A stretch of 60,163 bases of DNA, the filler included. It is 5 parts of 5 records of this genome, joined end to end, with 100 filler letters (N's around TTAATTAATTAA, not from the genome) between each part and the next. Parts side by side here need not be neighbours in the genome. Positions count along the whole stretch, not along the records: positions 40,836 to 52,089 come from DRR723986_14723; 4 more parts are not named here. One strand, written 5' to 3'. Of this stretch, positions 8,483-52,189 are shown in pieces; within the stretch, counting starts at the first letter, position 1; every line of letters starts with the position of its first letter. The translations under genes and the position numbers were made by a program. The notes beneath the pieces were generated by a model. The model was not told where the DNA came from and did not search any database. It saw only the letters and a list, made by a program, of their open reading frames with translations.

Positions 8483-8521
8483 GGTTTCGGTTCCTTCAAT
8501 CGCTATCAACGAATTCGTAAG

Positions 8522-10913: not shown

Positions 10914-11060
10914 ATTCATTGCCAGATTGAATCGCTGGTTTTCCTTCTGCAAAACTGCAGGACACCGATGGGGAAGTTTGATATGCTGGTGGTTTCGGAG
11001 CGTCGCGGGGCTGAAGTCCGCGGCTGCTGTTGTGGCAAGTAGTGTTAAGTGAGAGGGTGA

Positions 11061-11363: not shown

Positions 11364-11690
11364 CTTGAGAGGCTTCGACCTGAAAGAGTCTTTGAATCCG
11401 TCTAGTGGAAAATCGTATGGAAAAAAGGTCCAGGACACGCGAAATCCCGCCGCTCATCGAGCGGAGATCTATGCGGTCCGAGATCAAGTGTTGCGTCAGC
11501 GAGCTGAGCTCAAGCAGGCTAAATAGCAGTTGCTAGCCTTGTGGTGAGCTGATCTCGATTCTTGAACCAGGTTTTGGTAGTCGATAGTGTGGCGTCGTCC
11601 GCTGACCGCTCAGGGCCGACGCTGCACGTTGCCAGAGCTCCCTCAGCGGAGCACCGTTCACAGAATCGAACACCGTCTCTGGAGATACAG

Positions 11691-12254: not shown

Positions 12255-12341
12255 AGCGATCATTCAACCTCGAAGAGACCAGCGCCGCCAGACTCGGCCG
12301 TCTTTGGCGACCAGCCTTGAGCCAGGTTGTGCGGCGGTAGC

Positions 12342-13748
<1,407 letters not shown>

Positions 13749-13836
13749 GCTTCGCCTACTCCAGGATTGGGTTTCGCCAAAGAATTGATATCTCTGGCGA
13801 CAGTATCATGCCAGTCGGGCATATGGCTGCCCTGTG

Positions 13837-13870
13837 GATCTAACGCACAGTATGATCTAACACACAGTAT
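13837..13870. repeat. Tandem 17-bp direct repeat in divergent intergenic region (candidate operator)
   Basis: GATCTAACGCACAGTAT (13837-13853) followed by GATCTAACACACAGTAT (13854-13870), 16/17 identical. Confidence 0.7.
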
Positions 13871-13962
13871 ATTGCCTGCTGCGGGCGGCAACAGGCTTCG
13901 GCCAGTCGCAATGGTACAGACTCACGTTATTCTCTGCCCCTAACACCATAGACCGACAATCC

Positions 13963-15168: not shown

Positions 15169-15170
15169 AT

Positions 15171-16733
15171 TTAGACCGCGCTGGCGAGGGCGGGGAACGC
15201 GGTGGGGTCGGCAGACTGGGAACCGTGATCCATGAATGCGGTGTCCAGTCCGAGGGTTGGGATGAGTTGGCGACAAGTAATGCGTGACGATTCATAAATC
15301 ACGGGCAGGCCACTGCCCGGATGTGTGCCTCCGCCAACCAAGTAAACGCCGTCCAGATCCTCAAAGCGATTGTGAGGTCGCATGTGCAACATCTGAGTCA
15401 AATTGTGCGCTAGATTGAATGTCGCCCCTCGATATAAACCGAAATCTTGCTCCCAAAGACGCGGTGTAATGATGCGTTCACAAACGATGCGGTCTTCTAG
15501 ATCGTGCAGGCCCTCTTCGGCTAAACGATCAAGGGTCAAACGCCTGTAATTGGCAACTTGCTGCTCCGTCCAATCAACGTTCGGGTGAGCATGCGGCACA
15601 GGTACGAGAACGTACAATGCTGAGTGGCCTTCAGGTGCTAGCGTCGGATCAGTGATGCTGGCGTTCTGAACGTAGAAACTCGGGTGGTCGGGCAGCACGA
15701 AGTCGTCTTCGATTTGCTGCAAGTTTCGAGTGTAGTCCTTTGCAATGTGGATCGTATGATGCGCCCAGTCGGGACACTGCCCCTTAACGCCGAGGTACAT
15801 CATAAACGTCGAGCAAGAGAATTTCTTCTTGCTGATTCGCTCATTCGTCCATTTACGTCGTAGCTCGTTTGGAACAAGGCGTTCCATCGCCTGAGCAAAG
15901 TCGGCATTGATGATTACGGCGTCGGCATCAAAATCTTGGGATTCAGTCCGCACCGCCGTCGGACGCTTCCCGTCGAACTTGAAACCGGTCACCGCGCAGT
16001 CGGTCAGAATCTCTACTCCCATCGACCGAGCGAGTTCGGCCATCTTCTGACTAACCGCCCCACAACCGCCGATGGGATGGAAGACGCCGTGCTCATATTC
16101 AAGATAGGAGAGTATCGAGAAAAGGCTTGGGCACTTGAACGGAGACATTCCGAGATACTTCGACTGAAACGAAAATGCAATCGACAGTCGAGGATCCTTG
16201 AAGTAGCTCGACAGTTCATCGCCAAGTGACTTCCAAGGTTTTACTTTCGAAGCTGCAGCCAGTAACGATGGATTCAGAAGGTCCCGCCAACTGTTGAAGG
16301 GTGATTCGAGGATTGGACGGAACCGGGCAAGTTTGTCGCGATTGTCGTTGATATAGCGGCGTATTGAACCGGAGTCGGCTGGGCTGAGCGCGGAAATCTG
16401 TTCTTCCATTTTCGCCATGTCGCTGGTGGCGTCGATTTGCCCGCCCGCTCCGAAAGTGATTCGGTACTGCGGATCAAGACGCTTCATCGGAACTTCGTCT
16501 CGTAGGTTCAAGCCTACTGATGCGAAGATCTCGTTCAGGACTCTTGGATACAGAAAGAACGTTGGCCCAATATCAAACTTAAATCCCTCAAGTTCAAAGG
16601 TCGCGGTGCGTCCTCCGACCCACGATTGTTTCTCGAGGACCGTGACATCCGCTCCGGCCTCAGCCATCTGCATCGCCGAAGCAAGTCCACCAGGGCCAGC
16701 ACCAACGATTACGACCTTTGGTTTGTTCGGCAT
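15171..16733 (-). CDS. Phytoene/diapophytoene desaturase (CrtI/CrtN family)
   Basis: IVGAGPGGL FAD motif, FDIGPT, YLGMSP, SFYVQNASITDPTLAP and GGGTHPGSGLP. Confidence 0.88.
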   Translation of the reverse strand: MPNKPKVVIVGAGPGGLASAMQMAEAGADVTVLEKQSWVGGRTATFELEGFKFDIGPTFFLYPRVLNEIFASVGLNLRDEVPMKRLDPQYRITFGAGGQIDATSDMAKMEEQISALSPADSGSIRRYINDNRDKLARFRPILESPFNSWRDLLNPSLLAAASKVKPWKSLGDELSSYFKDPRLSIAFSFQSKYLGMSPFKCPSLFSILSYLEYEHGVFHPIGGCGAVSQKMAELARSMGVEILTDCAVTGFKFDGKRPTAVRTESQDFDADAVIINADFAQAMERLVPNELRRKWTNERISKKKFSCSTFMMYLGVKGQCPDWAHHTIHIAKDYTRNLQQIEDDFVLPDHPSFYVQNASITDPTLAPEGHSALYVLVPVPHAHPNVDWTEQQVANYRRLTLDRLAEEGLHDLEDRIVCERIITPRLWEQDFGLYRGATFNLAHNLTQMLHMRPHNRFEDLDGVYLVGGGTHPGSGLPVIYESSRITCRQLIPTLGLDTAFMDHGSQSADPTAFPALASAV

Positions 16734-16943
16734 TTTGCTCACGTCGTGGATCTTGAGCAGCCTTGAGGGAACAAGCTGCAAAGTAGTTTGAAGTGCGAAT
16801 CCAGGGCGTCTGGACCGAAAATTTCAGTGATCCGATTACGAGACGCTCCGACGCAGTTTATCACGCGGTCAAGCGAACGCTAAGGTGCCAGCAAGGCGGA
16901 TGAGCAATGAATCAGCAGCTCGGACTGTGGCTCTTCTCCGGGA

Positions 16944-18002
16944 CTAGCATCTGGCGGCGTGGGAGGGTGATTCCCTGGTCGCAATTTGACGTCCCACGCG
17001 ATAAAGGGCGTAAAATACGGCGAGTAATCCGATGATCGCGGCCAGCGACAGAAAGACGATGCCAATTGGCAAACGCTGATCGACGAGCATCCAGATGTAC
17101 TGGCCGATGCAAAGAAGCGAAACAAAAATCAGAGTGAAGCGGCGCGGCAGCAGGCTCACGGCAAGAGATCCGAGTGGCGCACCGAATAGCACGACAGGAG
17201 AAGCCGCCAACCAGCAAAGCGCAATTTCTGGATTGATCGCGTAATGCGATGCCAACCCGGCAGCGAACGATAAATACAAAATCGTTCCAACAACACTGGT
17301 GGCAGCCATCAAGATGACCGAGGTAGGGATCGAGATCTTGAGGTCGGCTCGGAACAGTAGAACGAGAGCCACATAGGCCAGCATGTCAATTCCCACTCCG
17401 GTTAAAGCCGATGTCATGCCGCCAAGGAATCCTATGGTCAGAGCGATACGCTTCGAATGCCCCTGAATCTCGCTGTTGACGCCGCGGTAGCTGAGAAACT
17501 CACCTGTCTTGACAAGGTGCAGAATTCCGAAGCTTGCCCAGAGGACGGAAAAGAGAACTTTCACGAAAAGATCGCTGATGAACGGTTCGACGACGATCGC
17601 TGCTAGCGGCAAGCCAATGACCATTCCTACCAGGGCGAACTTCAGGAAAGACCAATCGACTCGCGTACCCCGGGACAGCAAGAAGATTGTCGCCGACGTC
17701 ATGCCGATGGACTGAATCGACAGACCAAAGAGTTTGCCGTCGGAACCAGGGAAATCGAACAATAGCACCAAGACCGGAAAGCCAACTGTTCCTCCACCCA
17801 TCGGCGTACTACCGGCAACGTAGGAGCCGAATGCCATCGACAGAGCAACCGGCCAGCGCTCGGCGACTTGAATCCACGCATCGAACGCAGTCATGGTGCC
17901 CAACCAGACGGTCAAGAAACCGAAAATCCAAACGAGGAACGGTTGCAGCCGGTAACGTGATCGCTGGTTTGACGTGTGCTCGGTCGCTATTCGCTTCGGC
18001 AT
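16944..18002 (-). CDS. Sulfite exporter TauE/SafE family membrane protein
   Basis: GSYVAGSTPMGGGTVGFP, QSIGMTSA, GVGID and PTSVILMA; about 10 hydrophobic segments. Start uncertain. Confidence 0.75.
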   Translation of the reverse strand: MPKRIATEHTSNQRSRYRLQPFLVWIFGFLTVWLGTMTAFDAWIQVAERWPVALSMAFGSYVAGSTPMGGGTVGFPVLVLLFDFPGSDGKLFGLSIQSIGMTSATIFLLSRGTRVDWSFLKFALVGMVIGLPLAAIVVEPFISDLFVKVLFSVLWASFGILHLVKTGEFLSYRGVNSEIQGHSKRIALTIGFLGGMTSALTGVGIDMLAYVALVLLFRADLKISIPTSVILMAATSVVGTILYLSFAAGLASHYAINPEIALCWLAASPVVLFGAPLGSLAVSLLPRRFTLIFVSLLCIGQYIWMLVDQRLPIGIVFLSLAAIIGLLAVFYALYRVGRQIATRESPSHAARC

Positions 18003-18220
18003 ATTTGTAAGCAAACCGGAAATCTAGGCGATGTGGGCACGGGAGTTAGCCTGGTTTTTGAATGCTGAATTGTCATTGGCGGTCAAGAAGCACAGTGCCT
18101 TTGGGTGGATAGTAATTTCCGTTGCTTTGCATCCTCAACTTCCCTACCCTTCGAGACTAGCAATGAAATCCGTGCATTGGTGCCGAATCGCAGCAAACGG
18201 AGAAGTGCAGGAAAATCGAG

Positions 18221-19390
18221 ATGCGCCCAACTCAATCAATCAGGTCCGTAATCCACACCGCCGCTCTGGTCTTGATCGGAAGCGTCATCGCCGAAGGTCA
18301 GGTGGTTGAGGACGCGTCGGCAGTTCCCGGCACTTCGGGCGAACCCCAGGAAACGCAAGGTTCCGAATTAGTCCGGGCCACAGTTGATCATGGCACCCAG
18401 CGGCGCGAGAACAACGAGATCACGCAAGCCGAAGCGGAGTTGCTTGTTCCTACTGCCCTGCAGTTGTCGCCATCAGACATTGGTTCGACGAACGGCGGCG
18501 GAAGTACTCCCGTCAGCGACGAAGTTGAAGGCTTGAGCCTGAGCAATGATGGCGATGCACTCTTATTAGACGATTCCAATACAGTTGTCATCGATCCTGG
18601 CGAGCTAGAGGCTGCGGCGGAGGAGGCACGTGAGAGTATTTGGTTCGGTGATTGGGTGGGGTACAACCCGACCGAGAGTGATATGACGTGGTTGCCCGGC
18701 AGTGGCGATGACTTTGGCATTTTCAGTATGGAGTCCTATCCCAATCTACCGCTCTCAAAGCTAAAAAACGTCTCAACTGGAATGGGATTTCATTTCCTGA
18801 ATGGGCCGGCGGCAACAGACATGCCGCCCCGTTTATTTGATTTTCAGATAGCCTACCATTCTCGCGCCCGACGAACCAAATCGTTCGTGCTCGACTACCG
18901 CATTGGCGTCGGCGCGTTCAGCGATTTTGAAGGCAGTGCACGAAAAGGGATTCGCTTTCCTGGCCATGTGGTCGGATACTATCAGTGGAATCAGCGATGG
19001 ATGAGCGTCCTTGGCATTGAGTTTCTTGACCGCGACGACGTAAGTGTTTTGCCAGTCGTTGGATGGGTCTGCCGGCCACGCGATGATCTGGTTATCCAGG
19101 CGGTTTTTCCGAAGCCACAGATGCAAGTTAGAGTCAGTGACGACAGCTTTCTTTATCTCGCGGCCGAGCTGGGCGGTGGAACCTGGGCTGTGGAACGCGT
19201 GACGGAGCTTGATGACGTCGTGACCTACAGCGATTATCGACTACTATTTGGCATGGCAGACTTGGAAGCGGATAGTGCGTCCAGTGTGGAAGTCGGCTGG
19301 GCGTTTTCTAGATCGCTTGAGTATCGGAGCGGGTTGGGCAACTACCGACCGGATGACGCGTTCATCCTGCGGTTCAGGACGTTGTACTAG
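18221..19390 (+). CDS. Putative outer-membrane beta-barrel protein (DUF6268-like, planctomycete)
   Basis: Signal peptide, acidic disordered N-terminus, alternating aromatic beta-strands, DMPPRLFD, FSDFE, GGGTWAV and a terminal aromatic residue. Confidence 0.65.
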   Translation: MRPTQSIRSVIHTAALVLIGSVIAEGQVVEDASAVPGTSGEPQETQGSELVRATVDHGTQRRENNEITQAEAELLVPTALQLSPSDIGSTNGGGSTPVSDEVEGLSLSNDGDALLLDDSNTVVIDPGELEAAAEEARESIWFGDWVGYNPTESDMTWLPGSGDDFGIFSMESYPNLPLSKLKNVSTGMGFHFLNGPAATDMPPRLFDFQIAYHSRARRTKSFVLDYRIGVGAFSDFEGSARKGIRFPGHVVGYYQWNQRWMSVLGIEFLDRDDVSVLPVVGWVCRPRDDLVIQAVFPKPQMQVRVSDDSFLYLAAELGGGTWAVERVTELDDVVTYSDYRLLFGMADLEADSASSVEVGWAFSRSLEYRSGLGNYRPDDAFILRFRTLY

Positions 19391-19415
19391 AGCGGTTCAA
19401 GGCACGGTGTAGCGT

Positions 19416-19515
19416 NNNNNNNNNNNNNNNNNNNNNNNNNNNNNNNNNNNNNNNNNNNNTTAATTAATTAANNNNNNNNNNNNNNNNNNNNNNNNNNNNN
19501 NNNNNNNNNNNNNNN
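19416..19515. other. Artificial contig spacer
   Basis: N44-TTAATTAATTAA-N44 (stop codons in all six frames). Confidence 0.99.
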
Positions 19516-31303: not shown

Positions 31304-31403
31304 NNNNNNNNNNNNNNNNNNNNNNNNNNNNNNNNNNNNNNNNNNNNTTAATTAATTAANNNNNNNNNNNNNNNNNNNNNNNNNNNNNNNNNNNNNNNNN
31401 NNN
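31304..31403. other. Artificial contig spacer
   Basis: N44-TTAATTAATTAA-N44. Confidence 0.99.
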
Positions 31404-38963: not shown

Positions 38964-40226
38964 ATGGACACGCCAGACCTCTATCGGCCCCTCACGCCGG
39001 AAACGCTCGGCGAAAGACTTTCCGGCATTTCCGCCGTTGCGGACAGGATCGGAGCAGACCCGTCTGACTGGACCGTTCGCGAAGTTGGCGACGGCAACCT
39101 GAACCTCGTCTTCATTGTCGAGGGCCCCAAAGGCACGATCATCGTCAAGCAGGCGCTGCCCTATGTGCGCCTGGTGGGCGACAGCTGGCCGCTGCCGCTT
39201 TATCGTGCGCTTTACGAGAACCATGCGCTTGTGCGACAGGTCGCCCGTGATCCGGGCGCGGTACCGGAGGTCTACCACTTCGATGAGGACCAGGCGCTGA
39301 TCGTCATGGAATTCCTCTCGCCGCACAAGATCCTGCGGCGCAAGCTGATCGATGGTGAAAAGGTTGCAGGGCTCGGTGCTTTCCTTGGCACCTTCTGCGC
39401 CCGCACCGCGTTTCGCGGCTCGGAACTGTCCATGAAGAGCGCGGACAAGAAGGCCGATGTCAGCCTGTTCGCCGGCAACGTGGAAATCCCCGCAATCACC
39501 GAAGCGCTGGTTTTCACCGATCCTTATTATGCTGCTGAAATGAACCACCACACGGAAGGTCTCGACCCCGTTGTGGCAGACCTGCGCGCCAATGCCGAAC
39601 TGAAGGCAAAGGTGCAGCGGTTCCTGATGAAATTTGCCTCCAACACCGAAACCATGGTGCACGGCGACCTGCACAGCGGCTCCATCATGTCCACGGACAG
39701 CGACAGCCGCGTCATCGATCCCGAATTCGTGCAATACGGCCCGCTCGGCTTCGACATCGGCATGCTGACGGCCAACTTCCTGATGGCCTATTTCAGCCAG
39801 CCGGCCCATCGCAGCGCGGAAACACTCGACGATTTCCAGGAATGGGTTCTATCGGTCATCGCCGAAACCTTCTCATCCTTCGAGGCCGAGTTCACCCGCC
39901 TCTGGAACACCGAGCGCACCGGCATGCTTTACCCGGCTTCCCTGTTCGAGGATCAGGGGCAGGCATCGGACTTCGCATGTGCGGGCCTCCTGCAGGAAAT
40001 CCGCAACGAAGCCATGGGCTATTGCGGTATCGAGATGCACCGCCGTACCCTGTCGCTCGCCCACAATGCCGACTTCGAGGAAATCGAGGACAAGCAGCTG
40101 AAGCGCCGTCTGGAAACGCGCAACCTGCTGATGGGGGCCGACCTCATCCTGTCGCCAGAAAGTTACGGCTCGACCGATGCGCTCGTGAAGCTTGCGCGCC
40201 AATTCAACAAGAAGGACATCCCATGA
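38964..40226 (+). CDS. mtnK: S-methyl-5-thioribose kinase
   Basis: EVGDGNLNLVF, KQALPYVRLVGDSWPL, HGDLHSGS and VIDPEF. Confidence 0.95.
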   Translation: MDTPDLYRPLTPETLGERLSGISAVADRIGADPSDWTVREVGDGNLNLVFIVEGPKGTIIVKQALPYVRLVGDSWPLPLYRALYENHALVRQVARDPGAVPEVYHFDEDQALIVMEFLSPHKILRRKLIDGEKVAGLGAFLGTFCARTAFRGSELSMKSADKKADVSLFAGNVEIPAITEALVFTDPYYAAEMNHHTEGLDPVVADLRANAELKAKVQRFLMKFASNTETMVHGDLHSGSIMSTDSDSRVIDPEFVQYGPLGFDIGMLTANFLMAYFSQPAHRSAETLDDFQEWVLSVIAETFSSFEAEFTRLWNTERTGMLYPASLFEDQGQASDFACAGLLQEIRNEAMGYCGIEMHRRTLSLAHNADFEEIEDKQLKRRLETRNLLMGADLILSPESYGSTDALVKLARQFNKKDIP

Positions 40227-40735
40227 AGGTCAACGGCACTCATTACCGCTCGCTCTGGTGGGATGACGACAAGGCTGCCCTGCAGATCATCGATCAGCGC
40301 TGGCTGCCGCACGAATTCCGCATCCAGCAGGTCGACACACTTCAGGACTTCGCCGACGCGATCGTTGAGATGCGCGTGCGCGGCGCGCCGCTCATTGGTG
40401 CTACCGCTGCCTACGGCATGGCACTGGCCGCAAAGATCGACCCGTCCAATGCGCATCTGGACACGGCCTGGGAGTTTCTTGACAAGACCCGGCCGACGGC
40501 CATCAACCTGCGTTGGGCGCTCAACCGCTGCCGTGCGCACCTGCTCCCGCTGCCGGAAGCCGACCGTCCCGCCGCAGCGCTGAAGCTCGCGCACGAGATT
40601 TCCGACGAAGATGTCGGCATCAACCACAGCATCGGCCAGAATGGTCTTGAGATCATCCGCAAGATCGCAGCGGGCAAGAAGGACGGAGAGCCTGTCCGCA
40701 TCCTGACCCATTGCAACGCCGGCTGGATTGCGACC
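40223..40735 (+). CDS. mtnA: S-methyl-5-thioribose-1-phosphate isomerase (3' truncated)
   Basis: ATGA overlap with mtnK; IIDQRWLP, MRVRGAPLIG, TRPTAINL and LTHCNAGWIAT. Confidence 0.93.
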
Positions 40736-40835
40736 NNNNNNNNNNNNNNNNNNNNNNNNNNNNNNNNNNNNNNNNNNNNTTAATTAATTAANNNNNNNNN
40801 NNNNNNNNNNNNNNNNNNNNNNNNNNNNNNNNNNN
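40736..40835. other. Artificial contig spacer
   Basis: N44-TTAATTAATTAA-N44. Confidence 0.99.
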
Positions 40836-40892
40836 AGACACAATGCCGCACCCCCTTGGGGGTATCTCCGCCGGGTGGGCCACCGGGCTTAG

Positions 40893-42353
<1,461 letters not shown>

Positions 42354-42360
42354 TCACGCC

Positions 42361-44949
42361 ATGACGCACCAGCAGCCTCAGCAGACCACAGACCGGGTGT
42401 CCACCGGACTGCCCGGTCTGGATGAGGTGCTGGATGGCCTGCGAATCGGCGACAATGTTGTCTGGCGGGTCTCCGATCTGGACGATTACCGCCGATTCGT
42501 TCTTCCCTTTCTGGATGCTGCCGCCGACGCCGGCCGGCAGATCATCTATCTCCGCTTCGGCGAGCATCCGCCGATCATTGACCAGCACCCTGCGGTGCGC
42601 ACCATCACTATTGATGCCCTCGGCGGTTTCGAGAGTTTTACCAGCCGGGTCTGGCACCTGATCGAACAACATGGCCGCGGCGCCTTCTACGTTTGCGACA
42701 GCCTGAGTGAGCTACTCAATGCCTGGGCCACCGACGCCATGGTGGGCAATTTTTTCCGGGTAGTGTGTCCCTTCCTGTTCGAACTGGATACCGTCGCCTG
42801 GTTCACCCTGCACCCGGACCGACACTCCCGGATGACCCTGGACCGGATTCGCCAGACCACCCAGGTGCTGATTGATGTACACCGCCACGGCGACGATGTG
42901 CAGATTCATCCCATCAAGGCCTGGCGCCGGCAATCACCGACCATGTTCCTGCCCCATCGGGAACAGGCTGGCCAGTTCTGGCCGATTACCGACAGCAGCG
43001 ATGCCACCCGCTTGCAGGCCTCGCTGGAATCCGGGCACCTGCATCGCCAGCCACTGCTGGATTACTGGGACAGACTGTTCCAGGAAGTCAGCCGGGCCGT
43101 TTTTGAACAGGACCAGACCTGCATGCCTGATCTGCAGGAGCAGGTTCTGCAAGTGATGATCAGCCGCGACCCCAAGATTCTGGAACTGGCCCGGCGCTAC
43201 CTGACTCTGGAGGATCTGCTCACCATTCGCAGCCGTCTGGTTGGCAGCGGTTATATTGGCGGCAAGGCCACAGGCATGCTGATTGCCCGGAACATTCTGC
43301 TGAAAGATGCGCCTGAACTCTGGCAGCCGAATCTGGAACCCCACGATTCCAGCTACCTGGGCACCGACGCCTACTACGCATTTCTGGTCCACAACGGCCT
43401 GTGGCCGGCAATCATGCGACAACGCTCACCAGAAGGTTATCTCAGTGAAGCACCCGCCCTGCGCAAGGCCATCCTGACCGGGCAATTCCCGGCGGAAGTC
43501 CGTTCGGAGCTGGAACGCCTGCTTGACCATTACGGCCAGTATCCCATCCTGGTGCGCTCATCCAGCCTGCAGGAGGATGGTTTCGGCAACGCCTTTGCCG
43601 GCAAATACGACAGTGTCTTCCTGATCAACCAGGGGGCACCGGAACAGCGACTGGCGGAACTGGAAGATGCCATCCGCCAGGTCTACGCCTCGTCCATGAG
43701 CGACGACGCTCTGGTGTACCGTAAACAACGAGGCCTGGATCAGCGCGAGGAACCCATGGCCCTGCTGATCCAGCGGGTAAATGGCCGTTTCCATGGCCGC
43801 TACTACCTGCCCGATGCCGCGGGCGTTGGCGTGTCCAGAAACACCTTTGCCTGGGACAGCACCATGGACCCGAAAGCGGGCATGGTCCGCCTGGTTATGG
43901 GGCTGGGCACCCGGGCCGTAGACCGGATTGAAGGCGACCACGCCTGCGTGATGGCGCTGGATCATCCCGGCCGGCAACCTTTCCGCAACCCGGACGAACA
44001 CTATCGATTCTCCCAACATCTGGTGGACCTGCTCGACCTGCAGGAGGGCCATCTGGAAACCCGGCCCCTGAGCCAGTTACTGGACACCGTTCAAGATCTG
44101 CCCATGGCCCAGATGGGCGAAATCGACCGTGCCGCCAGTACCCGGGCGGAACAGATTGGGCTGCCAGGGCCTGTCTGGCGACTGACCTTCCGGCCGCTGG
44201 TTCAGTTCAGCTCATTCATTCAGCGGCTGTCATCTCTGTTATCTACCCTGGAGGCCGGCTATCAGCATCCCGTGGATGTCGAGTTCACCCTGCATATTGA
44301 TGAACAGGGCGAACCCTCCTTCAATCTGGTTCAGTGCCGGCCACTGGCCACGATTGGTGAAACCGGTCCGGTCACACTGCCGGAACATCTGCCCGCGGAG
44401 CGAGAGATTTTCCGCACCCAGGGCCACTTCATGGGCGGCAACATCAATCTGGCGATTACGCGGATTATCCGTATAGATGCGGCGATCTACGCCAACCTGA
44501 ATATCAATCAGCGTTACGATGTGGCCCGACGTGTCGGCGAGGTGGTTCGGGAATCCAGCGCCAGCACCCTGCTGATTGGTCCCGGACGTTGGGGCACCAG
44601 CAGCCCGGAGCTGGGCGTTCCGGTCAGGTTTGCCGATATTGCCGGCGTCAGCGCCTTGGTGGAGGTATCGGAGAATGCCGGCGACATGGTGCCGGATCTG
44701 TCCTACGGTTCCCATTTCTTCCAGGATCTGGTGGAAACCGGTATTGCCTATGTGGCGCTGTTTCCTGAATCAGACCAGTGCCGCTACCGACCTGACCTTC
44801 TGCCCGGCGAAATCTCCCAGCCTGACAACGCCAGTGACATTGAGCGCGCCGTCCGGGTATATGTCACCGACCAGACACCCCTGCAACTGACCGGTGATGT
44901 GGTTCGGCAGGAACTGGTGTGCTATCGGCCGGTTGACCCGAAGCAATAG
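42361..44949 (+). CDS. PPDK/PEP-synthase-like ATP-grasp protein with N-terminal degenerate KaiC/RecA-like domain
   Basis: N-terminal RVSTGLPGLDEVL; IGGKA, VRSSSLQEDG...AFAGKYDS, MALLIQ, GLGTRAV, DVEF and LVQCRP; no PEP/pyruvate TIM barrel. Confidence 0.85.
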   Translation: MTHQQPQQTTDRVSTGLPGLDEVLDGLRIGDNVVWRVSDLDDYRRFVLPFLDAAADAGRQIIYLRFGEHPPIIDQHPAVRTITIDALGGFESFTSRVWHLIEQHGRGAFYVCDSLSELLNAWATDAMVGNFFRVVCPFLFELDTVAWFTLHPDRHSRMTLDRIRQTTQVLIDVHRHGDDVQIHPIKAWRRQSPTMFLPHREQAGQFWPITDSSDATRLQASLESGHLHRQPLLDYWDRLFQEVSRAVFEQDQTCMPDLQEQVLQVMISRDPKILELARRYLTLEDLLTIRSRLVGSGYIGGKATGMLIARNILLKDAPELWQPNLEPHDSSYLGTDAYYAFLVHNGLWPAIMRQRSPEGYLSEAPALRKAILTGQFPAEVRSELERLLDHYGQYPILVRSSSLQEDGFGNAFAGKYDSVFLINQGAPEQRLAELEDAIRQVYASSMSDDALVYRKQRGLDQREEPMALLIQRVNGRFHGRYYLPDAAGVGVSRNTFAWDSTMDPKAGMVRLVMGLGTRAVDRIEGDHACVMALDHPGRQPFRNPDEHYRFSQHLVDLLDLQEGHLETRPLSQLLDTVQDLPMAQMGEIDRAASTRAEQIGLPGPVWRLTFRPLVQFSSFIQRLSSLLSTLEAGYQHPVDVEFTLHIDEQGEPSFNLVQCRPLATIGETGPVTLPEHLPAEREIFRTQGHFMGGNINLAITRIIRIDAAIYANLNINQRYDVARRVGEVVRESSASTLLIGPGRWGTSSPELGVPVRFADIAGVSALVEVSENAGDMVPDLSYGSHFFQDLVETGIAYVALFPESDQCRYRPDLLPGEISQPDNASDIERAVRVYVTDQTPLQLTGDVVRQELVCYRPVDPKQ

Positions 44950-44998
44950 CCAGAGGTTTTTCGCCCCGGCACCGATAACACGCTGCTAGAATGCACTC

Positions 44999-46270
44999 AT
45001 GGAATGGCTGACACACTCACAGACCGGTTTTCGGCAGGCCGCCCGCTACCTTCTGGGCATGCGCCTGGCCATTATTGTCACCTTGCTGGTGGCGGTCGCG
45101 GTTGCCGAAACCACCATCACCCTTGCTCATCGGGCCGAGGCGCTGCTGCTGTGCCTGCTGTACGGTGTACTGGCCACGCTCGGATGGTTATGGTTCAGCC
45201 GGCGCCCGCCCGCCTCGGCGGTTTTTGTCAGCCTTACCCTAGCAGCCGATCTGGTACTGATCGGGCTCTGGCTTTACCTTACCGGAGGCTACACCAACCC
45301 TCTGGTCTCGCTCCTGCTGCTGCCGATTGCTGTCGCCATCATCCTGGTGCCTGGGCGCCACAGTATCGTCCTGACAGTATCCGGTGTTCTGGTGTATACC
45401 GCCCTGGTGCTCTGGCATACGCCTGCCATTGAACATCAGCATCACGGCGGCGACCTGGCCCAGCTACATCTGGTGGGTATGTGGGTGACCTTTGCCCTGA
45501 CTGCCACCATCCTGCTCCTGGTAGTGGGCACTCTGGCCCGCCAGCTCAGAGCACAGCAATCCCAGCTTGGACAGTTCCGGGAAAACCGGCTTCGCGACGA
45601 ACAGATTATTTCTCTGGGCCTGTCCGCCGCGGCCGTCGCCCATCGTCTCGGAACGCCCCTGAACACCATGACGTTACTGCTGGATGAAATTCGCTCTGCC
45701 ACCTCTGATCAGGGCGAAAAGCATCTGGAGGATGATCTGAGCATGATGCAACAGCAGCTGGCACTGTGCAGTGGCCATCTCCAGCAGCTGACCCAGGCGG
45801 CCGTCGAAGCCCGCAACGCAAAACTGGAAAACCTGCCGGTGTCCGCCTGGCTCACACGGCTTCGGGAGTCTGCAACCTTGCTCTGGCCCGCCGGGCCGAT
45901 ACGCTGGGCAGACGATTGTCCCGAGGCCATGGTTGCGGTAGATGCCACCCTCGATCAGGCGGTACTGAACCTGCTCGCCAACGCCCTGACCGCCAGCCCG
46001 CAATGGGTCGCCGTCAGTTGCCAGAGGGCCGACAATGCACGGGTCGAGATCATCGTCGAAGACCACGGCGATGGTCTGGAAAGTGCCTTTGCCGGTGCGC
46101 CGGGCGAAGACGTGGTGGATTCCCGCAACGGCCTGGGTGTGGGGCTGTTTCTGTCCAACGCCACCATACAGCGACTGGGCGGCCACCTTCGTGCCCGGGT
46201 GAGCGATCAGGGCACCACCATGGTGATCGACCTTCCGATGTCTGACGCACCTTCTACGGGAGTTATCTGA
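44999..46270 (+). CDS. regB: RegB/PrrB/RoxS-like membrane sensor histidine kinase
   Basis: About 6 TM segments with TGGYTNP (RegB GGxxNP motif), HLVGMW, AHRLGTPL, NLLANA, D.G.G and GLGVGLFL. Confidence 0.8.
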   Translation: MEWLTHSQTGFRQAARYLLGMRLAIIVTLLVAVAVAETTITLAHRAEALLLCLLYGVLATLGWLWFSRRPPASAVFVSLTLAADLVLIGLWLYLTGGYTNPLVSLLLLPIAVAIILVPGRHSIVLTVSGVLVYTALVLWHTPAIEHQHHGGDLAQLHLVGMWVTFALTATILLLVVGTLARQLRAQQSQLGQFRENRLRDEQIISLGLSAAAVAHRLGTPLNTMTLLLDEIRSATSDQGEKHLEDDLSMMQQQLALCSGHLQQLTQAAVEARNAKLENLPVSAWLTRLRESATLLWPAGPIRWADDCPEAMVAVDATLDQAVLNLLANALTASPQWVAVSCQRADNARVEIIVEDHGDGLESAFAGAPGEDVVDSRNGLGVGLFLSNATIQRLGGHLRARVSDQGTTMVIDLPMSDAPSTGVI

Positions 46271-46272
46271 AC

Positions 46273-46806
46273 ATGACAGACGGCGAATGCTGGTTGCTGA
46301 TTGATGACGATGAGAGCTTTCTGCAGGTACTGAGCCGCTCTCTCACGCGCCAGGGTGTGGAGAGCGCGACAGCCAGTAACCGGAACGATGCGCTTCAGGC
46401 CCTTGGCGAGAACCACTTTAACCGCTGCGTGCTTGACCTCAACCTGGCGGGCGAAAGTGGCCTGCAATTACTACCCGAGCTGCTGCAATGCGATGACAAT
46501 CTGGAGGTACTGGTACTGACCGGCTACGGCAGTATCGCCACGGCGGTGGAGGCCATACGCCGTGGCGCGGTGAATTATCTGTGCAAACCGGTGACCGTCA
46601 GCCAGCTGATTCAGGGCTTTGAACCCATTGAGGGTGACCCCGCACTCCGCCAGGAACCGCCTTCCGTAGAGGAAATGGAGTGGGAACATATCCAGCGGGT
46701 GCTGAATGAGCACGAGGGCAACATATCGGCAACGGCCCGGGCTCTGAACATGCACCGCCGAACCCTGCAACGAAAACTCCAGAAGCATTCCCGCTGGCGA
46801 CAGTGA
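46273..46806 (+). CDS. regA: RegA/PrrA/RoxR-like response regulator
   Basis: Receiver domain (DDD, LDL, LTGYGSIATAVEA, KP) and C-terminal WEHIQRVL..NISATARALNMHRRTLQRKL. Confidence 0.9.
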   Translation: MTDGECWLLIDDDESFLQVLSRSLTRQGVESATASNRNDALQALGENHFNRCVLDLNLAGESGLQLLPELLQCDDNLEVLVLTGYGSIATAVEAIRRGAVNYLCKPVTVSQLIQGFEPIEGDPALRQEPPSVEEMEWEHIQRVLNEHEGNISATARALNMHRRTLQRKLQKHSRWRQ

Positions 46807-46838
46807 CCCCGCCCGTCAATGACACAAAACCGCTCCTG

Positions 46839-46856
46839 AATTGACGACCGTCAATT
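46839..46856. promoter_or_regulatory. FNR/Anr-like box
   Basis: AATTGACG-AC-CGTCAATT, a perfect 8-bp inverted repeat containing TTGAC-N4-GTCAA. Confidence 0.55.
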
Positions 46857-47049
46857 TCATGAAACCAAGGTCGAATGCCTTCACACGCCGGATGCGGTAG
46901 CATCCCCCGCGACCTCCCATTGCAATAAACGGATAACAGAGACACGGCAAATACGGAGGTTGCGGGTAGCCATCATTGCTATACTCGCAGACAGTTCTCA
47001 CATGGAGAGGAGGAAGCCGAAAGCCACCAATAGCCGGAACACCTGATTT

Positions 47050-49179
47050 ATGCCCAACACCCCGGACGCTCCCCAGCCTCCTTCGGACATTGATCCGAAA
47101 CGACTGGCGCTGGTCGCCACCGCCACCCGTAACATGGCACTGATTCTGGACGCCGGCGGCTGCATCGAGTGGGTCAACCAGGCGTTTGAAAAGCACACTG
47201 GCTACTCGCTGGATTCGGTGCGTGGGAAACTGCCCAGCCAGGCTCTGGCCGGCCCGGATACCGATCCGGAGACCGTCGGCCGGATATATCACCACTTGTT
47301 CCGGGGTGAGGCATTCGAAGAAGACATCCTGCACTACACTGCCAACGGCGAACCTTACTGGGTCCACACCTACTGCACACCGGTGGATGACGAGGACGGC
47401 GTTGAACCCGGCTTCGTGGTGATCCAGACCAACATTTCAGACCGGAAAAACAGCGAGCGCGGCCTGCGCATCGCCGCCAGCGTCTTTGATCGCAGCCACG
47501 AGGCGATCATTATTTCTGATCACCTGAACCGCATTATCGATGTGAATCCCGCTTTTTCCAGGATTACCGGTTACAGCCGCCATGAAGTGCTGGGGCTCAA
47601 CCCTTCCATACTGAGTTCCGGGCGCCATTCCCGTGAATATTATCGCTCCATGTGGAAGTCCATCGAAAAGACCGATCACTGGCGCGGAGAAGTGTGGAAT
47701 CGCCGGAAAAACGGTGAGGAATATGTGGAATTGCTGTCCATCAGCCGGGTGCATCTGGAAGAACCCGGCAAACATTATTATGTGGCGGCGTTCTCCGATA
47801 TCACTGCCCTGAAAAATCACGCCAGGGAGCTGGACCGGGCCGCAAACTATGACGACCTCACCGGCCTGCCCAACCGACAGCTGCTGGAAGAGCGGCTGCG
47901 CTCCGCCAAGGCCCATGCTGACCGGCAGAAACGCTCACTCGCCATCTGCTATCTGGACCTGGATGGCTTCAAGGGCATCAACGATGAACTCGGCCACGAC
48001 TTCGGCGACCAGGCCCTCCGCATGGTGGCAGAGCGGCTGACCCGAAGCCTCCGCAGCGGAGATACCGTCGCCCGTATCGGAGGCGATGAATTTGTTCTGC
48101 TGATTCAGGGTGATCATTCCGAGCCCCTGTACCAGCGCATTCTGACGTCGGTCAGTGAACCTTTCGAAATGGCGGGTAAAGAGGTAAACCTGACCGCCAG
48201 CCTCGGCGTAACCCTGTACCCGGAAGATGATACCGACGCCGAAGGCCTGATCCGCCACGCTGACCAGGCCATGTATGCTGCCAAAGAGAAAGGCCGCAAC
48301 CAGTTCCACATTCTGGATCCCGGCCAATATGCCTTCCGTAAGGAGCGCCGGAACCAGCTGATGGAGATTTCCCGGGCCCTGGAAAACGAGGAATTCGAAC
48401 TCTACTTCCAGCCCCAGCTGCGCATGGCCGACTGCCAGGTGATCGCCTTTGAGGCCCTGATCCGCTGGAACCATCCGGACAAGGGACTGATTGCCCCCGG
48501 CGCATTTCTGCCGGCGGTGGCAAACAGTCATCTGGAGATCCCCCTGGGCCAATGGGTGTTGAAAGAAGCGATCCACCAGATGAACCGGTGGCGGGAAGCC
48601 GGCGAAGCCCTGGCAGTCAGCATCAACATCAGTGCACCCCACCTGATGGATCGGAAGTTTGTCGACTACCTGGAAGGCTATCTGCAAAGCCACCCGGAAG
48701 TGAGCCCCGGGCAAATCACCCTGGAAGTGCTGGAGTCTACGGCGCTGGAAGACACCAAACGTGCCAGTAACGTGCTGGCCCGTTGCCAGTCTCTGGGCCT
48801 GCAGGTGGCGCTGGACGACTTCGGCACCGGGTTTTCATCGCTGACCTACCTGCGCACCCTGCCGGTGGATGTCATCAAGATTGACAAGAGTTTTGTCCGC
48901 AACATGCTGACCGACGCCAATGACCGCGCCATCGTCGAAAGCGTTATCTTCCTGGCCCAGCGGTTTGATCATCCTGTGCTGGCGGAGGGCGTGGAAACCA
49001 TGGAACACGCCACCGCACTTCGGGATATGGGCTGCAACCTGGTTCAGGGCTACGGCATCGCCCGCCCGATGCCATCCGGAGCGGTACTGGGGTGGCTACA
49101 AAACTGGCGCCGCCAGATCGAATCCAGAAAGGAAATCCAGCAGCTTCAGGTGGTTTCCGAGCAGGGCGAAGGCATCTGA
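47050..49179 (+). CDS. PAS-PAS-GGDEF-EAL diguanylate cyclase/phosphodiesterase
   Basis: Two PAS-PAC domains, DDLTGLPNR, RSGD I-site, GGDEF, EALIRW, DDFGTGFSSL and AEGVE. Confidence 0.95.
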   Translation: MPNTPDAPQPPSDIDPKRLALVATATRNMALILDAGGCIEWVNQAFEKHTGYSLDSVRGKLPSQALAGPDTDPETVGRIYHHLFRGEAFEEDILHYTANGEPYWVHTYCTPVDDEDGVEPGFVVIQTNISDRKNSERGLRIAASVFDRSHEAIIISDHLNRIIDVNPAFSRITGYSRHEVLGLNPSILSSGRHSREYYRSMWKSIEKTDHWRGEVWNRRKNGEEYVELLSISRVHLEEPGKHYYVAAFSDITALKNHARELDRAANYDDLTGLPNRQLLEERLRSAKAHADRQKRSLAICYLDLDGFKGINDELGHDFGDQALRMVAERLTRSLRSGDTVARIGGDEFVLLIQGDHSEPLYQRILTSVSEPFEMAGKEVNLTASLGVTLYPEDDTDAEGLIRHADQAMYAAKEKGRNQFHILDPGQYAFRKERRNQLMEISRALENEEFELYFQPQLRMADCQVIAFEALIRWNHPDKGLIAPGAFLPAVANSHLEIPLGQWVLKEAIHQMNRWREAGEALAVSINISAPHLMDRKFVDYLEGYLQSHPEVSPGQITLEVLESTALEDTKRASNVLARCQSLGLQVALDDFGTGFSSLTYLRTLPVDVIKIDKSFVRNMLTDANDRAIVESVIFLAQRFDHPVLAEGVETMEHATALRDMGCNLVQGYGIARPMPSGAVLGWLQNWRRQIESRKEIQQLQVVSEQGEGI

Positions 49180-49188
49180 GCCGCAAGC

Positions 49189-49848
49189 TTACCGGTAGCG
49201 GCTCTGATCCAGAGTACTGAGCCGGTCCGGGTGGAATACCATCAGGCCGGTGACAAAGGTGCCATTGATGAAACCCTCCGGAATCATGAACAGCGGCAGA
49301 TACCTCAGATACTCATGCACCAGTTCATCAAAACTGTAGGTGCCGCTGCTCCATAGCATCAGGCACATCACAATGCCCGCTGCGGCCACCGAAAGGCCGG
49401 CTCCGAAAAATCCGCAGAAGAAGATGTAGGCGAAGAAGTTACGGAAATTGCGCCGTCGTTCCCACAACATGATGCCGTGGCTGACCAGTGCCGGGACCAT
49501 CACCGTAATCAGACCGTTGGCGGCAAACATCAGTAATGGCTCGCGCCCGGTGATGACGGTGATCACCAGAGCCAGCAGGCCCGCCAGCACGGCCAGAGCC
49601 CAACCCAGCATCAGAGTAATCACCGTGATGCCAAAGATGTGAATCGCCAATCCTGGTGAAATACCTGCCCGCAACTGCCAGACAAAACCCAGAATCACCG
49701 CAGCACCGAAAAACGAATGCTGAAGAGCGTTATCCTTGCGCAAGGCGGACCAGTCGACAGAACGCACCGCGTTCAACAGAATCACCGCAAACAACACGGC
49801 GGTGATCAGCCATTGACTGGTGGAGAGCAGGTTGTCGGTCATTCCCAT
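49189..49848 (-). CDS. Solitary CbiM-like / ECF S-component-like membrane protein
   Basis: About 7 TM segments; GLAIHIFG..TLMLGW, NFFAYIF and PEGFING. Confidence 0.7.
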   Translation of the reverse strand: MGMTDNLLSTSQWLITAVLFAVILLNAVRSVDWSALRKDNALQHSFFGAAVILGFVWQLRAGISPGLAIHIFGITVITLMLGWALAVLAGLLALVITVITGREPLLMFAANGLITVMVPALVSHGIMLWERRRNFRNFFAYIFFCGFFGAGLSVAAAGIVMCLMLWSSGTYSFDELVHEYLRYLPLFMIPEGFINGTFVTGLMVFHPDRLSTLDQSRYR

Positions 49849-49936
49849 GGCGATTTACCGGTGCGGGTGCGATTGGAAATACGGGGCAGTGTCTACACAT
49901 ACCCCATACACCGTCAATGGGATCACACCGTTCAGG

Positions 49937-51661
49937 TCAAGCCGCCAACGCCGCCCGGTTCGTGAGCGCCTGCCAGGCTTCATAAGTGCTCAGGAAGATG
50001 CGTCCGCCCAGGTGTTCCAGCAACTCCGTGCCTTTGAGCCGGTCCATGACCGGGCCCTTGATTTCCGAGAAATGCAGACGCACCCCGGCGTCGCGCAGCC
50101 GTTCGTTAATCGCTTCCAGGCTTTCCAGGGCTGAGGCGTCAATAAGGTTCACCGCCGGACACACCAGCACCAGATCGGTCAGCTCCGGCTCCCGGGTAAC
50201 CAGATCCATCACGGTTTCTTCAAGGAAACGGGCATTGGCGAAATACAGGCTTTCATCCACCCGCAGGAAGGTAACTTTGGGACAGAGTTCCACCTCATGG
50301 CGCAGCACGTTGCGGAAATGCTCGGTGCCCGGCACCCGGCCCACCACGGCGCTGTGGGGGCGACTGGTTCGGTACAGGAACAGGCCAATCGATAACGCCA
50401 CCCCGGCAATGATACCGGCTTCGACACTGTGACCAAGGGTAAGCAGGATGGTCGCCAGCATGGCCCCGAAATCGGTACGGGAATATCGGAAAGTGCGGCC
50501 CAGTGCCGGCAGATCAATCAGGGTGATCACCGCCACAATAATGGTCGCCGCCAGCGTCGCCTGGGGCAACCAGGCTATGGCCGGCGTGAGGAACAGGGTC
50601 GCCAGGGCGATGCCCACCGCCGTATAGGCACCGGCCGCCGGTGTTTCAGCGCCGGCATCAAAGTTCACCACCGAACGGGAAAAGCCACCGGTAACCGGCA
50701 TACCGCCCGACAGGCCGGACCCCAGGTTGGCGGTACCCAGACCAATCAGCTCCTGGTCCGGGTCAATGCGCTGGCGCCTTTTGGCCGCCAGGGTCTGACC
50801 CACCGAAACCGATTCCACGAAACCTACCACACTGATCAGCAAGGCGCTGACCGCCAGTTGGGACCACAGGCCAAGATCCAGACTGGGCATGGTGAAGGAA
50901 GGCAATCCTGACGGTACCTCACCGACCAATCGCACCCCCTGCTCATCCAGCCGAAATACCCAGGCCAGCAGCATGGTGATCAGCACCGCCAGAATGGGGG
51001 CGGTCTTGGTCAGGATATCAGCCGCCCGGGGCGCCAGGCCGAGTCGATGCAGTACCGGTTTCAGGTACCGGCGCGACCACAACAGGAACATCAAGGCCCC
51101 GCCCCCGATCAACAGCGTGGGCACGTTGGTATTGCCCAGGGAAACCAGTAACGAGTGACCAATATCCAGCAAGTTGTGGCCATTGGCCTGGATACCGAAC
51201 AGGTGCTTGAGCTGGCTGGCGGCAATGACAATGCCCGAGGCGGTAATAAACCCGGATATCACCGGATGGCTCAGGAAGTTGGCCAGGAATCCCAGCCGCA
51301 GAACCCCCATCAGGGTCAGCATCAGGCCAGACATCACCGCCAGCAAGATAGCTCCAGCCAGATACTCAGCAGTGCCCGCCTCGGCCAGTGGCGCCAGAGC
51401 AGCCGCCGTCATCAGCGAGGCCACCGCCACCGGGCCAACAGAGAGGGTGCGACTGGTTCCGAACACCGCATAGATCACCAGTGGCAGAATGCTGGCGTAC
51501 AACCCGACCTGCGCCGGGAGGCCTGCCAGCAGAGCGTAGGCCAGAGACTGGGGAATCAGCATAACGGTGACAATCACCGCAGCCACCAGATCACTGGTGG
51601 CCTGGTCGCGACGATAAAATGGCACCCATTGCAGAATGGGCAGAAAGCGTTTCAGATTCAT
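49937..51661 (-). CDS. sulP: SulP-family inorganic anion transporter with STAS domain
   Basis: LIPQSLAYA.LAG, GTSRTLSVGP, QELIGLG, TGGFSRS and STAS RVDESLYFANA. Confidence 0.93.
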   Translation of the reverse strand: MNLKRFLPILQWVPFYRRDQATSDLVAAVIVTVMLIPQSLAYALLAGLPAQVGLYASILPLVIYAVFGTSRTLSVGPVAVASLMTAAALAPLAEAGTAEYLAGAILLAVMSGLMLTLMGVLRLGFLANFLSHPVISGFITASGIVIAASQLKHLFGIQANGHNLLDIGHSLLVSLGNTNVPTLLIGGGALMFLLWSRRYLKPVLHRLGLAPRAADILTKTAPILAVLITMLLAWVFRLDEQGVRLVGEVPSGLPSFTMPSLDLGLWSQLAVSALLISVVGFVESVSVGQTLAAKRRQRIDPDQELIGLGTANLGSGLSGGMPVTGGFSRSVVNFDAGAETPAAGAYTAVGIALATLFLTPAIAWLPQATLAATIIVAVITLIDLPALGRTFRYSRTDFGAMLATILLTLGHSVEAGIIAGVALSIGLFLYRTSRPHSAVVGRVPGTEHFRNVLRHEVELCPKVTFLRVDESLYFANARFLEETVMDLVTREPELTDLVLVCPAVNLIDASALESLEAINERLRDAGVRLHFSEIKGPVMDRLKGTELLEHLGGRIFLSTYEAWQALTNRAALAA

Positions 51662-51668
51662 GCGCGGC

Positions 51669-52089
51669 TCAGAACAGGTTGACCGGTACCTTCAGGTACA
51701 CCTGGCCGTTGTCTTCTGCAGACGGCATATGGCCCGCCCGCATATTCACCTGCACCGACGGCAGGATCAGCCGCGGCATATCCAGCGTTGCATCCCGCTC
51801 GGTGCGCATCTTCACAAACTCCTCTTCCGACACACCATCGTGCACGTGCACATTAGCCTGGCGCTGCTCGGCCACGGTGGTCATGTGCTGGTATTCATCA
51901 CGGTCGGGAGCCTTGTAATCATGGCACAGGAAGATGCGAGTCTCCGGCGGCAACGCCAGAACTTTCTGGATGGACTGGTAGAGAACCCGGGCATCACCGC
52001 CCGGGAAATCACAGCGGGCCGTACCGTAATCCGGCATAAACAGGGTATCGCCCACAAATGCGGCGTCGCCAATCACATAGGTCAGGCAG
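51669..52089 (-). CDS. MBL-fold persulfide dioxygenase / Blh-like protein (5' truncated)
   Basis: FVGDTLFMPDYGTARCDFPGG, FLCHDY, RTERDATL.MP.LILPS.QVNMRAG and YLKVPVN. Confidence 0.88.
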
Positions 52090-52189
52090 NNNNNNNNNNN
52101 NNNNNNNNNNNNNNNNNNNNNNNNNNNNNNNNNTTAATTAATTAANNNNNNNNNNNNNNNNNNNNNNNNNNNNNNNNNNNNNNNNNNNN
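52090..52189. other. Artificial contig spacer
   Basis: N44-TTAATTAATTAA-N44. Confidence 0.99.

Follow-up and report, generated by a model that had tools for sequence, protein, structure and literature searches.

A glutamate dehydrogenase locus in Marinobacter

We describe a Marinobacter gene for an 862-residue protein that lies immediately downstream of gdhA, the gene for an NADP-specific glutamate dehydrogenase (GDH). The protein combines an N-terminal domain of the KaiC/RecA fold, an ATP-grasp domain of the PPDK_N type, and a C-terminal domain bearing an invariant histidine, His785. The gene is part of a 60,163-nt stretch of DNA (hereafter the window), which consists of five joined contigs; its own contig occupies positions 40836-52089 (DRR723986_14723). 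Because the spacers in the window join separate contigs, genes that flank a spacer on its two sides are not neighbours. The stop codon of gdhA is located 7 nt before the start of the 862-residue gene. The features of the locus are collected in Table 1.

Table 1. Positions of the gene, its domains and the surrounding features in the window.
Feature	Position	Strand	Basis and remarks
Palindrome GCACC-N5-GGTGC	40917..40931	.	Perfect; 73 nt upstream of gdhA; the window's sole match (60 kb)
gdhA, NADP-specific glutamate dehydrogenase, 449 aa	41004..42353	+	NCBIfam NF006929, 775.8 bits vs cut-off 536; Pfam
Whole gene, 862 aa	42361..44949	+	ATG start; Marinobacter; KaiC-like / PPDK_N / His-domain family
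KaiC/RecA-fold domain, aa 1-210	42361..42990	+	Foldseek, Atlas, conservation; no Walker A
Five-helix linker, aa 211-297	42991..43251	+	DSSP of model: helices 212-227, 235-249, 255-267, 271-280, 283-291
PPDK_N-type ATP-grasp nucleotide-binding domain, aa 298-668	43252..44364	+	Pfam, Foldseek, invariant residues
End of coil linker, aa 669-681	44365..44403	+	DSSP; coil from about aa 662; pLDDT 75 for aa 661-670
C-terminal domain, aa 682-862	44404..44946	+	No Pfam model covers it; swivelling beta/beta/alpha-like fold
His785 codon	44713-44715	+	Invariant; N-terminus of helix 785-792; candidate phospho-acceptor
RegB/RegA (ActS/ActR)-like histidine kinase	44999-46270	+	PilS-like 6TM domain; 49 nt after the 862-aa gene
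REC + Fis-HTH response regulator	46273-46806	+	Directly after the histidine kinase
Spacers	19416-19515, 31304-31403, 40736-40835, 52090-52189		Each 44 N + TTAATTAATTAA + 44 N

Domain organization of the protein

The motifs that the original prediction had quoted from the sequence alone, together with the His785 codon, are all present in the translation where they had been placed: RVSTGLPGLDEVL at aa 12-24, GGK at aa 300-302, VRSSSLQEDGFGNAFAGKY at aa 398-416, QCRP at aa 658-661, and SYGSHFFQDLVETGI at aa 781-795. A full-length model built on 77 relatives (pLDDT 91.9, pTM 0.92) contains three domains that account for the whole length and leave no unassigned region. The sole Pfam match in the protein is PPDK_N, at aa 298-668 (E 1e-45; score 156.9 bits, cut-off 27). 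Neither the mobile domain of phosphoenolpyruvate (PEP) utilizers (PF00391), nor their C-terminal barrel (PF02896), nor the KaiC family (PF06745) gave a Pfam match at E <= 1 in the 862 residues, and the PF02896 barrel was not found by Pfam in the neighbouring genes either. The NCBIfam models for PEP synthase, pyruvate phosphate dikinase (PPDK), rifampin phosphotransferase (RPH), and PigC/RedH gave scores of 18-72 bits (cut-offs 456-1700), with matches confined to aa 331-485. A whole-protein profile searched against the PDB returned only ATP-grasp chains, plus the KaiC-like 2dr3 at E 0.64.

The N-terminus had been predicted to resemble KaiC or RecA without a Walker A motif, and both parts of that claim are confirmed. 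With the full model, Foldseek matched this region to KaiC, RecA, and FlaH with E values from 1.6e-9 to 6e-8 (KaiC 7s65, E 1.6e-9; FlaH 4yds, TM-score 0.69 normalised by target length), and the clusters nearest to aa 1-210 in the language-model Atlas were archaeal KaiC-domain proteins of the PF06745 type (score 0.90). The Walker A pattern [AG]x4GK[ST] occurred in 0 of 49 aligned relatives with the N-terminal domain and in 0 of 69 full-length locus proteins, a family-wide loss; the Marinobacter protein reads RVSDLDDY at this place. The domain opens with a ..STG..GLD.. motif and keeps a Walker-B-like Asp113, along with conserved residues specific to the family (G16, D21, G30-D31-N32, W122, D125, N130, F131, F132, C136, P137, K186, and R190).

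The ATP-grasp domain is intact, as had been proposed. Foldseek placed it with RPH and PEP synthase at E 6e-15 to 1e-10 (RPH 5hv3/5hv1, E 6e-15; PEP synthase 2ols), and it aligns with the VRSS..ED..FAG core of RPH. Across 77 aligned sequences, 26 columns are invariant, most of them within this domain; they include G300, G301, R399, S401, S402, E405, D406, G414, E641, C659, and R660, with K302 kept in 98%.

The C-terminal domain contains the motifs GPGRWGT (aa 740-746) and SYGSHFFQDLVE (aa 781-792), and five of its residues (R743, G752, E768, G783, and H785) are invariant in the 77 sequences. The conservation of His785, which had been named as a check on the predicted phosphorylation site, extends to 77 of 77 aligned relatives at 27-85% identity and to 13 of 13 alignments covering the position from nine proteins of other architectures (tandem, short, and NTP_transf_2-fused). 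By DSSP, the surrounding structure is a strand (765-769), a loop, a helix that starts with the histidine (785-792), and a further strand (796-800). This strand-loop-[ST]-H-helix-x-I-strand pattern agrees with the canonical TSH-helix-GIP-strand of phospho-His domains. Internally, confidence in the model is lowest for two segments, the coil at aa 661-670 (pLDDT 75) and the His-bearing loop at aa 771-790 (pLDDT 59-69). In the model, the coil linker could possibly serve as the tether of a mobile domain.

Size, conservation and architectures of the family

The family is very large, well conserved, and unstudied. Among 8,000 scored candidates, 7,784 matched at E <= 1e-3; for representatives at 50% identity, 3,973 matched at this threshold and 745 at E <= 1e-30. 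Species-representative genomes encode at least 595 relatives among the 605 pattern matches listed, and the recurrence of the gene's features exceeds chance by far. The closest named matches are Marinobacter proteins (86% to M. daepoensis), and identity between phyla is 40-49% over ~860 aa. Relatives are named in databases as "PEP/pyruvate-binding domain-containing protein" or "phosphoenolpyruvate synthase". Literature searches, in which subscription journals were not covered, revealed no publication about this family.

The S-x-G-[ST]-H-F-F motif around the histidine is kept in both halves of tandem forms of 1,470 aa and also in forms of 600, 780, and 1,060 aa. A nucleotidyltransferase domain follows the core (the ATP-grasp and His-bearing domains) in 6 of 23 scanned relatives, and a receiver (REC) domain occurs in one paralogue.

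Several of these architectures are worth recording individually. Tandem forms of 1,460-1,490 aa (P0087, P0074, and P0092) consist of a core, a KaiC-like domain, and a second core, and both copies retain PELSFGSHFFQDLVE. In P0214, P0232, P0233, P0244, P0254, and P0183 (~1,060 aa, one of 1,654 aa), an NTP_transf_2/Pol-beta domain is located after the His-bearing domain; we take this domain to share its superfamily with GlnD and GlnE, which are enzymes that modify proteins.

Association with ammonium-assimilation genes

Open reading frames (ORFs) were called in 80 related loci, and the family gene was recovered in 74, six being lost to simple ORF calling; no Marinobacter locus is among the species-representative matches listed. 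A Pfam scan of 77 upstream and 72 downstream neighbours identified ammonium-assimilation genes no more than two genes away in 42 of the 74 loci, with unrelated genes or too little flank in the other 32. Within this distance, and in categories that overlap where a locus holds more than one, we counted GDH in 20 loci, subunits of glutamate synthase (GOGAT) in 8, Amt/PII in 5, NrpR in 4, GAF/sigma-54 activators in 4, glutamine synthetase (GS) in 3, and carbamoyl-phosphate synthase (CPSase) in 3. When 419 neighbour ORFs up to four genes away were clustered, GDH ranked first (22 of 74 loci), followed by regulators, GOGAT, PII/Amt, GltD, and NrpR. GDH stands at position -1 on the same strand in ten loci, with gaps of 43-217 nt.

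The 70 full-length proteins placed in a FastTree phylogeny span 11 NCBI phylum-level groups, including a methanogen. On this tree GDH linkage (21 rows) needs 16 changes, and it is therefore not one inherited arrangement. Operons of this kind hold family members in Proteobacteria, Desulfobacterota, Planctomycetota, Bacillota, Actinomycetota, Spirochaetota, Omnitrophota, Acidobacteriota, and a methanogen. The link to ammonium assimilation, which the original prediction lacked, is strong and is the best clue to the function of the family.

NrpR, a nitrogen repressor that senses 2-oxoglutarate and is known from methanogens, adjoins the family gene in four bacterial loci (L014, L016, L017, and L072; Syntrophus, Syntrophorhabdus, and others). 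In a Bryobacterales locus (L054:1548-8589), two family members stand in tandem behind gdhA, the first a 1,004-aa REC-PPDK_N paralogue and the second an 870-aa KaiC-like form.

Comparison with known systems

By curated models, the Marinobacter protein is a member of none of the PEP synthase, PPDK, RPH, or PigC families. RPH (RPH-Lm; 5hv1, 5hv3, 5fbs) is the best structural match of its ATP-grasp domain and shares its domain order, with the ATP-grasp first, a His-bearing domain at the C-terminus (of the swivel type in RPH and resembling it here), and no pyruvate barrel in either protein. However, RPH carries a domain that binds rifampin and a His domain of the canonical PF00391 kind, while the Marinobacter protein has a KaiC-like N-terminal domain instead. 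The two also differ in context, resistance for RPH and nitrogen assimilation here, and the RPH model NF041857 scores only 46.8 bits against a cut-off of 999, in a match confined to aa 366-473.

The PEP synthases and dikinases of the PpsA/PPDK type (PF01326, PF00391, and PF02896) share the GGK, VRSS..ED..FAG, and Q.RP motifs. Their "SH-AAIVAR-E-x-GI" pattern is also matched in its main elements, namely a His behind [ST] at a helix start, a Glu at +7, and an Ile at +10. They differ in domain order and gene context, and the Marinobacter protein has neither their barrel nor a recognisable PF00391 domain. The prodigiosin ligases PigC and RedH give weak matches to the ATP-grasp (42.7 and 41.4 bits against cut-offs of 1300 and 1350) and no similarity outside it. 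KaiC, RecA, FlaH, and RAD55-type PF06745 ATPases share the fold of aa 1-210 and its ..STG..GLD.. opening; in contrast to these single-domain ATPases, no checked member of the present family has a Walker A, and the domain is fused to an ATP-grasp.

A functional parallel may be VadK (Rv1127c) of Mycobacterium tuberculosis. It is a PPDK-derived protein with an ATP-binding and a His domain and no PEP/pyruvate domain, a truncated PPDK of ~490 aa with a canonical central His domain that is confined to actinomycetes (PMC13400623). VadK autophosphorylates His422 with ATP and Mg, binds methylcitrate-cycle enzymes, and regulates metabolic enzymes through interaction (PMC13400623). The original prediction had raised the possibility of a new class of signalling kinase, which is overstated, VadK being already a barrel-less, PPDK-derived regulatory His autokinase (PMC13400623). 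Compared with VadK, the present family is longer (860 aa), has an added KaiC-like domain and a divergent C-terminal domain, is associated with nitrogen genes, and spans ~11 phyla. The truncated-PPDK model NF004531 (534 aa), which we assume to be the VadK-type model, scores the Marinobacter protein at 18.4 bits against a cut-off of 456. The analogy with VadK is thus one of function, not of family membership.

Proposed function

From the domain folds, the conserved motifs, and the gene context established above, we propose that the protein is an ATP-using phospho-His enzyme of the PEP-synthase/PPDK superfamily that has no barrel and passes phosphate from ATP through His785 to an acceptor in ammonium assimilation, a proposal to which we give about even chances. 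The working model comes from the PPDK-type enzymes, reportedly as set out by Herzberg in 1996. RPH has the same domain order, and VadK sets a precedent for a histidine autokinase derived from PPDK without its barrel (PMC13400623). ATP would be bound by the intact ATP-grasp (aa 298-668); His785, at a helix start behind a flexible loop in a swivel-like C-terminal domain tethered by a coil, would be phosphorylated or pyrophosphorylated; the phosphoryl group would then be handed to an acceptor, for which, or for an effector, the P-loop-less KaiC-like domain may be the docking site. The protein could in this way act as a VadK-like metabolic regulator that controls or drives the assimilation of nitrogen. 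An enzyme or regulator of that process is the most likely acceptor, because the gene apparently forms an operon with NADP-GDH here and stands beside GDH, GOGAT, GS, Amt/PII, or NrpR elsewhere. More generally, the gene probably has an ATP-driven part in ammonium assimilation that has been overlooked.

One step of this model is the phosphorylation of the C-terminal domain, for which a cryptic phospho-His swivel had been predicted. The domain (aa 670-862) was modelled separately on 72 sequences (pLDDT 93.2) and its structural neighbours were searched. Phospho-His domains account for seven of its top 24 neighbours (2fm4, 2e28, 5hv1, 1vbg, 2wqd, 5woy, and 5t12; Z 5.0-6.0). They include the phosphoryl-carrier domain of PPDK (2fm4; Z 6.0, rmsd 3.7, 116 of 128 residues aligned), the extra C-terminal domain of Bacillus stearothermophilus pyruvate kinase (Z 5.8), the RPH His domain (5hv1 756-867; Z 5.7, rmsd 3.7, 112 aligned), maize PPDK (1vbg 383-511; Z 5.6), and Enzyme I (Z 5.5 for 2wqd, with others at 5.2 and 5.0). 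We take all of the structural neighbours to belong to the SCOP "swivelling beta/beta/alpha domain" fold, and the model supports membership of the C-terminal domain in that fold class.

A number of results weigh against the proposed relay, most of them concerning this same domain. With the C-terminal model, Foldseek returned nothing at E <= 1e-3, and in the structural search against representatives Z was only 5-7, none reaching the value of 8 below which, as the tool warns, a match may reflect a common arrangement. The top match was not a phospho-His domain but a DRTGG domain (2ioj, Z 7.1), and the phospho-His matches were tied with RraA-like, putative-cyclase, chaperonin-apical, LD-carboxypeptidase, and LeuD domains. 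Since they are mixed among other swivel-fold domains in this manner, the fold class is backed, but no specific relation to the phospho-His superfamily is supported. At the sequence level, none of the 72 C-terminal domains matched PF00391 at E <= 1, and no Pfam family was matched consistently among them; a PDB profile search with the domain gave a best E of only 1.4, and the Atlas offered no named family for it. An hhalign comparison of the family's C-terminal profile with 12 true PF00391 domains reached a probability of 0.1-0.2, and local, low-mact, and global modes brought no significant match; these 12 domains were drawn from 17 matches in the genomes of five relatives, five being left out where the extended frame was not open. 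One non-significant hhalign alignment pairs the canonical His with R743 of GPGRWGT rather than with His785. Moreover, the invariant R743, E768, and E792 exceed the needs of a mere carrier domain. Outside this domain, the clustering of the 419 neighbour ORFs from 74 loci revealed no conserved unknown partner gene, and an identity of 40-49% between phyla over 860 aa is also compatible with a core metabolic enzyme. In favour of the proposal, the gene is covered by contigs assembled from RNA libraries in 4 of 4 runs (three studies); these contigs bridge its junction with gdhA in all four and its junction with the downstream kinase in two. They attest that the sequence is present and bridged, but do not prove a transcript and tell neither level nor strand.

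The predicted swivel thus survives in one respect: the fold resembles that of swivelling beta/beta/alpha domains, phospho-His domains included at Z 5.0-6.0, but there is no similarity to PF00391 in sequence or profile, and Z remains below 8. A swivelling role for the modelled domain is plausible, and by predicted secondary structure His785 fits the canonical His position better than R743.

A more far-reaching version of the proposal, which we regard as distinctly improbable, is that the family represents a missing ATP-driven component of ammonium assimilation in ~11 phyla. It would be either a phospho-His relay with which organisms that have no classical GlnD/GlnE controls switch GDH, GOGAT, or GS in response to nitrogen status, or a PigC-like enzyme that activates the carbonyl of 2-oxoglutarate. 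In the latter case the low-affinity GDH route would work at low ammonium at a cost in ATP, and in either case the dead KaiC-like domain would be a docking or sensing module.

Few parts of microbial metabolism have been studied as well as ammonium assimilation (GDH, GS-GOGAT, PII, and Amt), and yet its operons hold an unstudied ATP-using protein of 860 residues. To know the acceptor would extend the textbook nitrogen scheme by a regulator or by an energy-coupled step. The family would also be a second case, far more widespread than VadK, of PPDK machinery reused without the pyruvate barrel. Its Marinobacter copy offers a practical entry point, the genus being culturable and genetically tractable.

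Alternative explanations

In PigC and RedH, a carbonyl is activated for condensation with the help of ATP and a phospho-His, and this chemistry inspired an alternative in which the protein is a small-molecule dikinase or ligase resembling RPH or PigC/RedH. The RecA-like domain would hold a metabolite of ammonium assimilation, such as 2-oxoglutarate, glutamate, or a related compound with a carbonyl or carboxyl group, and His785 would transfer phosphate to it in an ATP-driven step that feeds or pulls the reactions of GDH and GOGAT. We consider this unlikely, though well worth weighing. The superfamily and domain order are those of RPH, the weak NCBIfam matches include PigC, RedH, and RPH, the 860 residues are as highly conserved over ~11 phyla as in core enzymes, and GDH, the neighbour that occurs most often and lies closest, is an enzyme (at -1 in 10 loci, and 7 nt away here). 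However, the protein contains no substrate-binding domain of a known kind, and a RecA fold without a P-loop is not a known site for small-molecule substrates. The neighbours are not those of one pathway either, mixing regulators (NrpR, PII, and sigma-54/GAF activators) with GS, CPSase, and Amt, and the fusions in relatives (REC, and nucleotidyltransferase in 6 of 23 scanned) resemble those of signalling proteins.

To a similar degree we doubt a second alternative, which dispenses with the phospho-His relay. Here the C-terminal domain would be a catalytic or regulatory module specific to the family, the ATP-grasp would act directly as a kinase or ligase, and His785, R743, and E768 would serve as a general base or as ligands for substrate or metal. 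The undetectable PF00391 homology of the domain, its structural similarity at the level of fold class only with a DRTGG domain on top, the several invariant charged residues beside His785, and the compact full model (pTM 0.92), by itself no sign of swivelling, are all compatible with such a module. On the other hand, all characterised relatives with a PPDK_N ATP-grasp that we know of (PpsA, PPDK, RPH, PigC, and glucan water dikinase) use a phospho-His domain, which counts against the idea. The invariant His785 occupies the same strand-loop-His-helix-strand setting, and the model has both a coil linker and a low-confidence His loop. VadK likewise works through a phospho-His domain (PMC13400623).

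It is very improbable that the protein is a non-catalytic scaffold or sensor, a pseudoenzyme for which ATP or AMP is the signal and which regulates nitrogen enzymes by binding alone. The N-terminal domain is already a dead ATPase, and VadK acts partly via protein binding (PMC13400623), but the catalytic-type residues of the ATP-grasp and the histidine are invariant over ~11 phyla, which argues for chemistry and not only binding.

Finally, an ordinary PEP synthase or PPDK, as the PPDK_N domain and the database names of relatives would have it, is almost certainly not what the gene encodes and is refuted as far as sequence allows, because the protein has neither the PEP/pyruvate barrel (PF02896) nor PF00391 by Pfam, its 862 residues are fully taken by the three other domains, and its scores on the PEP synthase, PPDK, RPH, and PigC models are far below their cut-offs. 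The original prediction was correct on this point, and the label "phosphoenolpyruvate synthase" on relatives is a widespread misannotation that should be corrected.

Other features of the window

The palindrome upstream of gdhA fits what we take to be the NtrC-type binding consensus and may be a putative site, though 16 of 100 shuffles yield at least one such match somewhere; if it is a true NtrC site, the operon of gdhA and the 862-residue gene would come under nitrogen control. The histidine kinase and response regulator downstream best match the ActS/PrrB/RegB and ActR/PrrA/RegA redox systems among NCBIfam models, below the cut-offs. We rejected this pair for now as a functional partner, as histidine kinases cluster in only 6 of the 74 related loci. 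Farther along this contig, positions 47050-49179 of the same strand encode a 709-aa protein with PAS-PAS-GGDEF-EAL domains, which points to c-di-GMP turnover.

GC content varies between the pieces of the window, from 0.54 (1-19415) to as much as 0.64 (around 24-26 kb) and 0.485 (52-56 kb). On the contig that precedes that of the gene, positions 38964-40735 hold an ORF for an APH-family kinase and then one of the IF-2B family, which extends to where the contig stops, presumably the methylthioribose kinase and methylthioribose-1-phosphate isomerase of methionine salvage.

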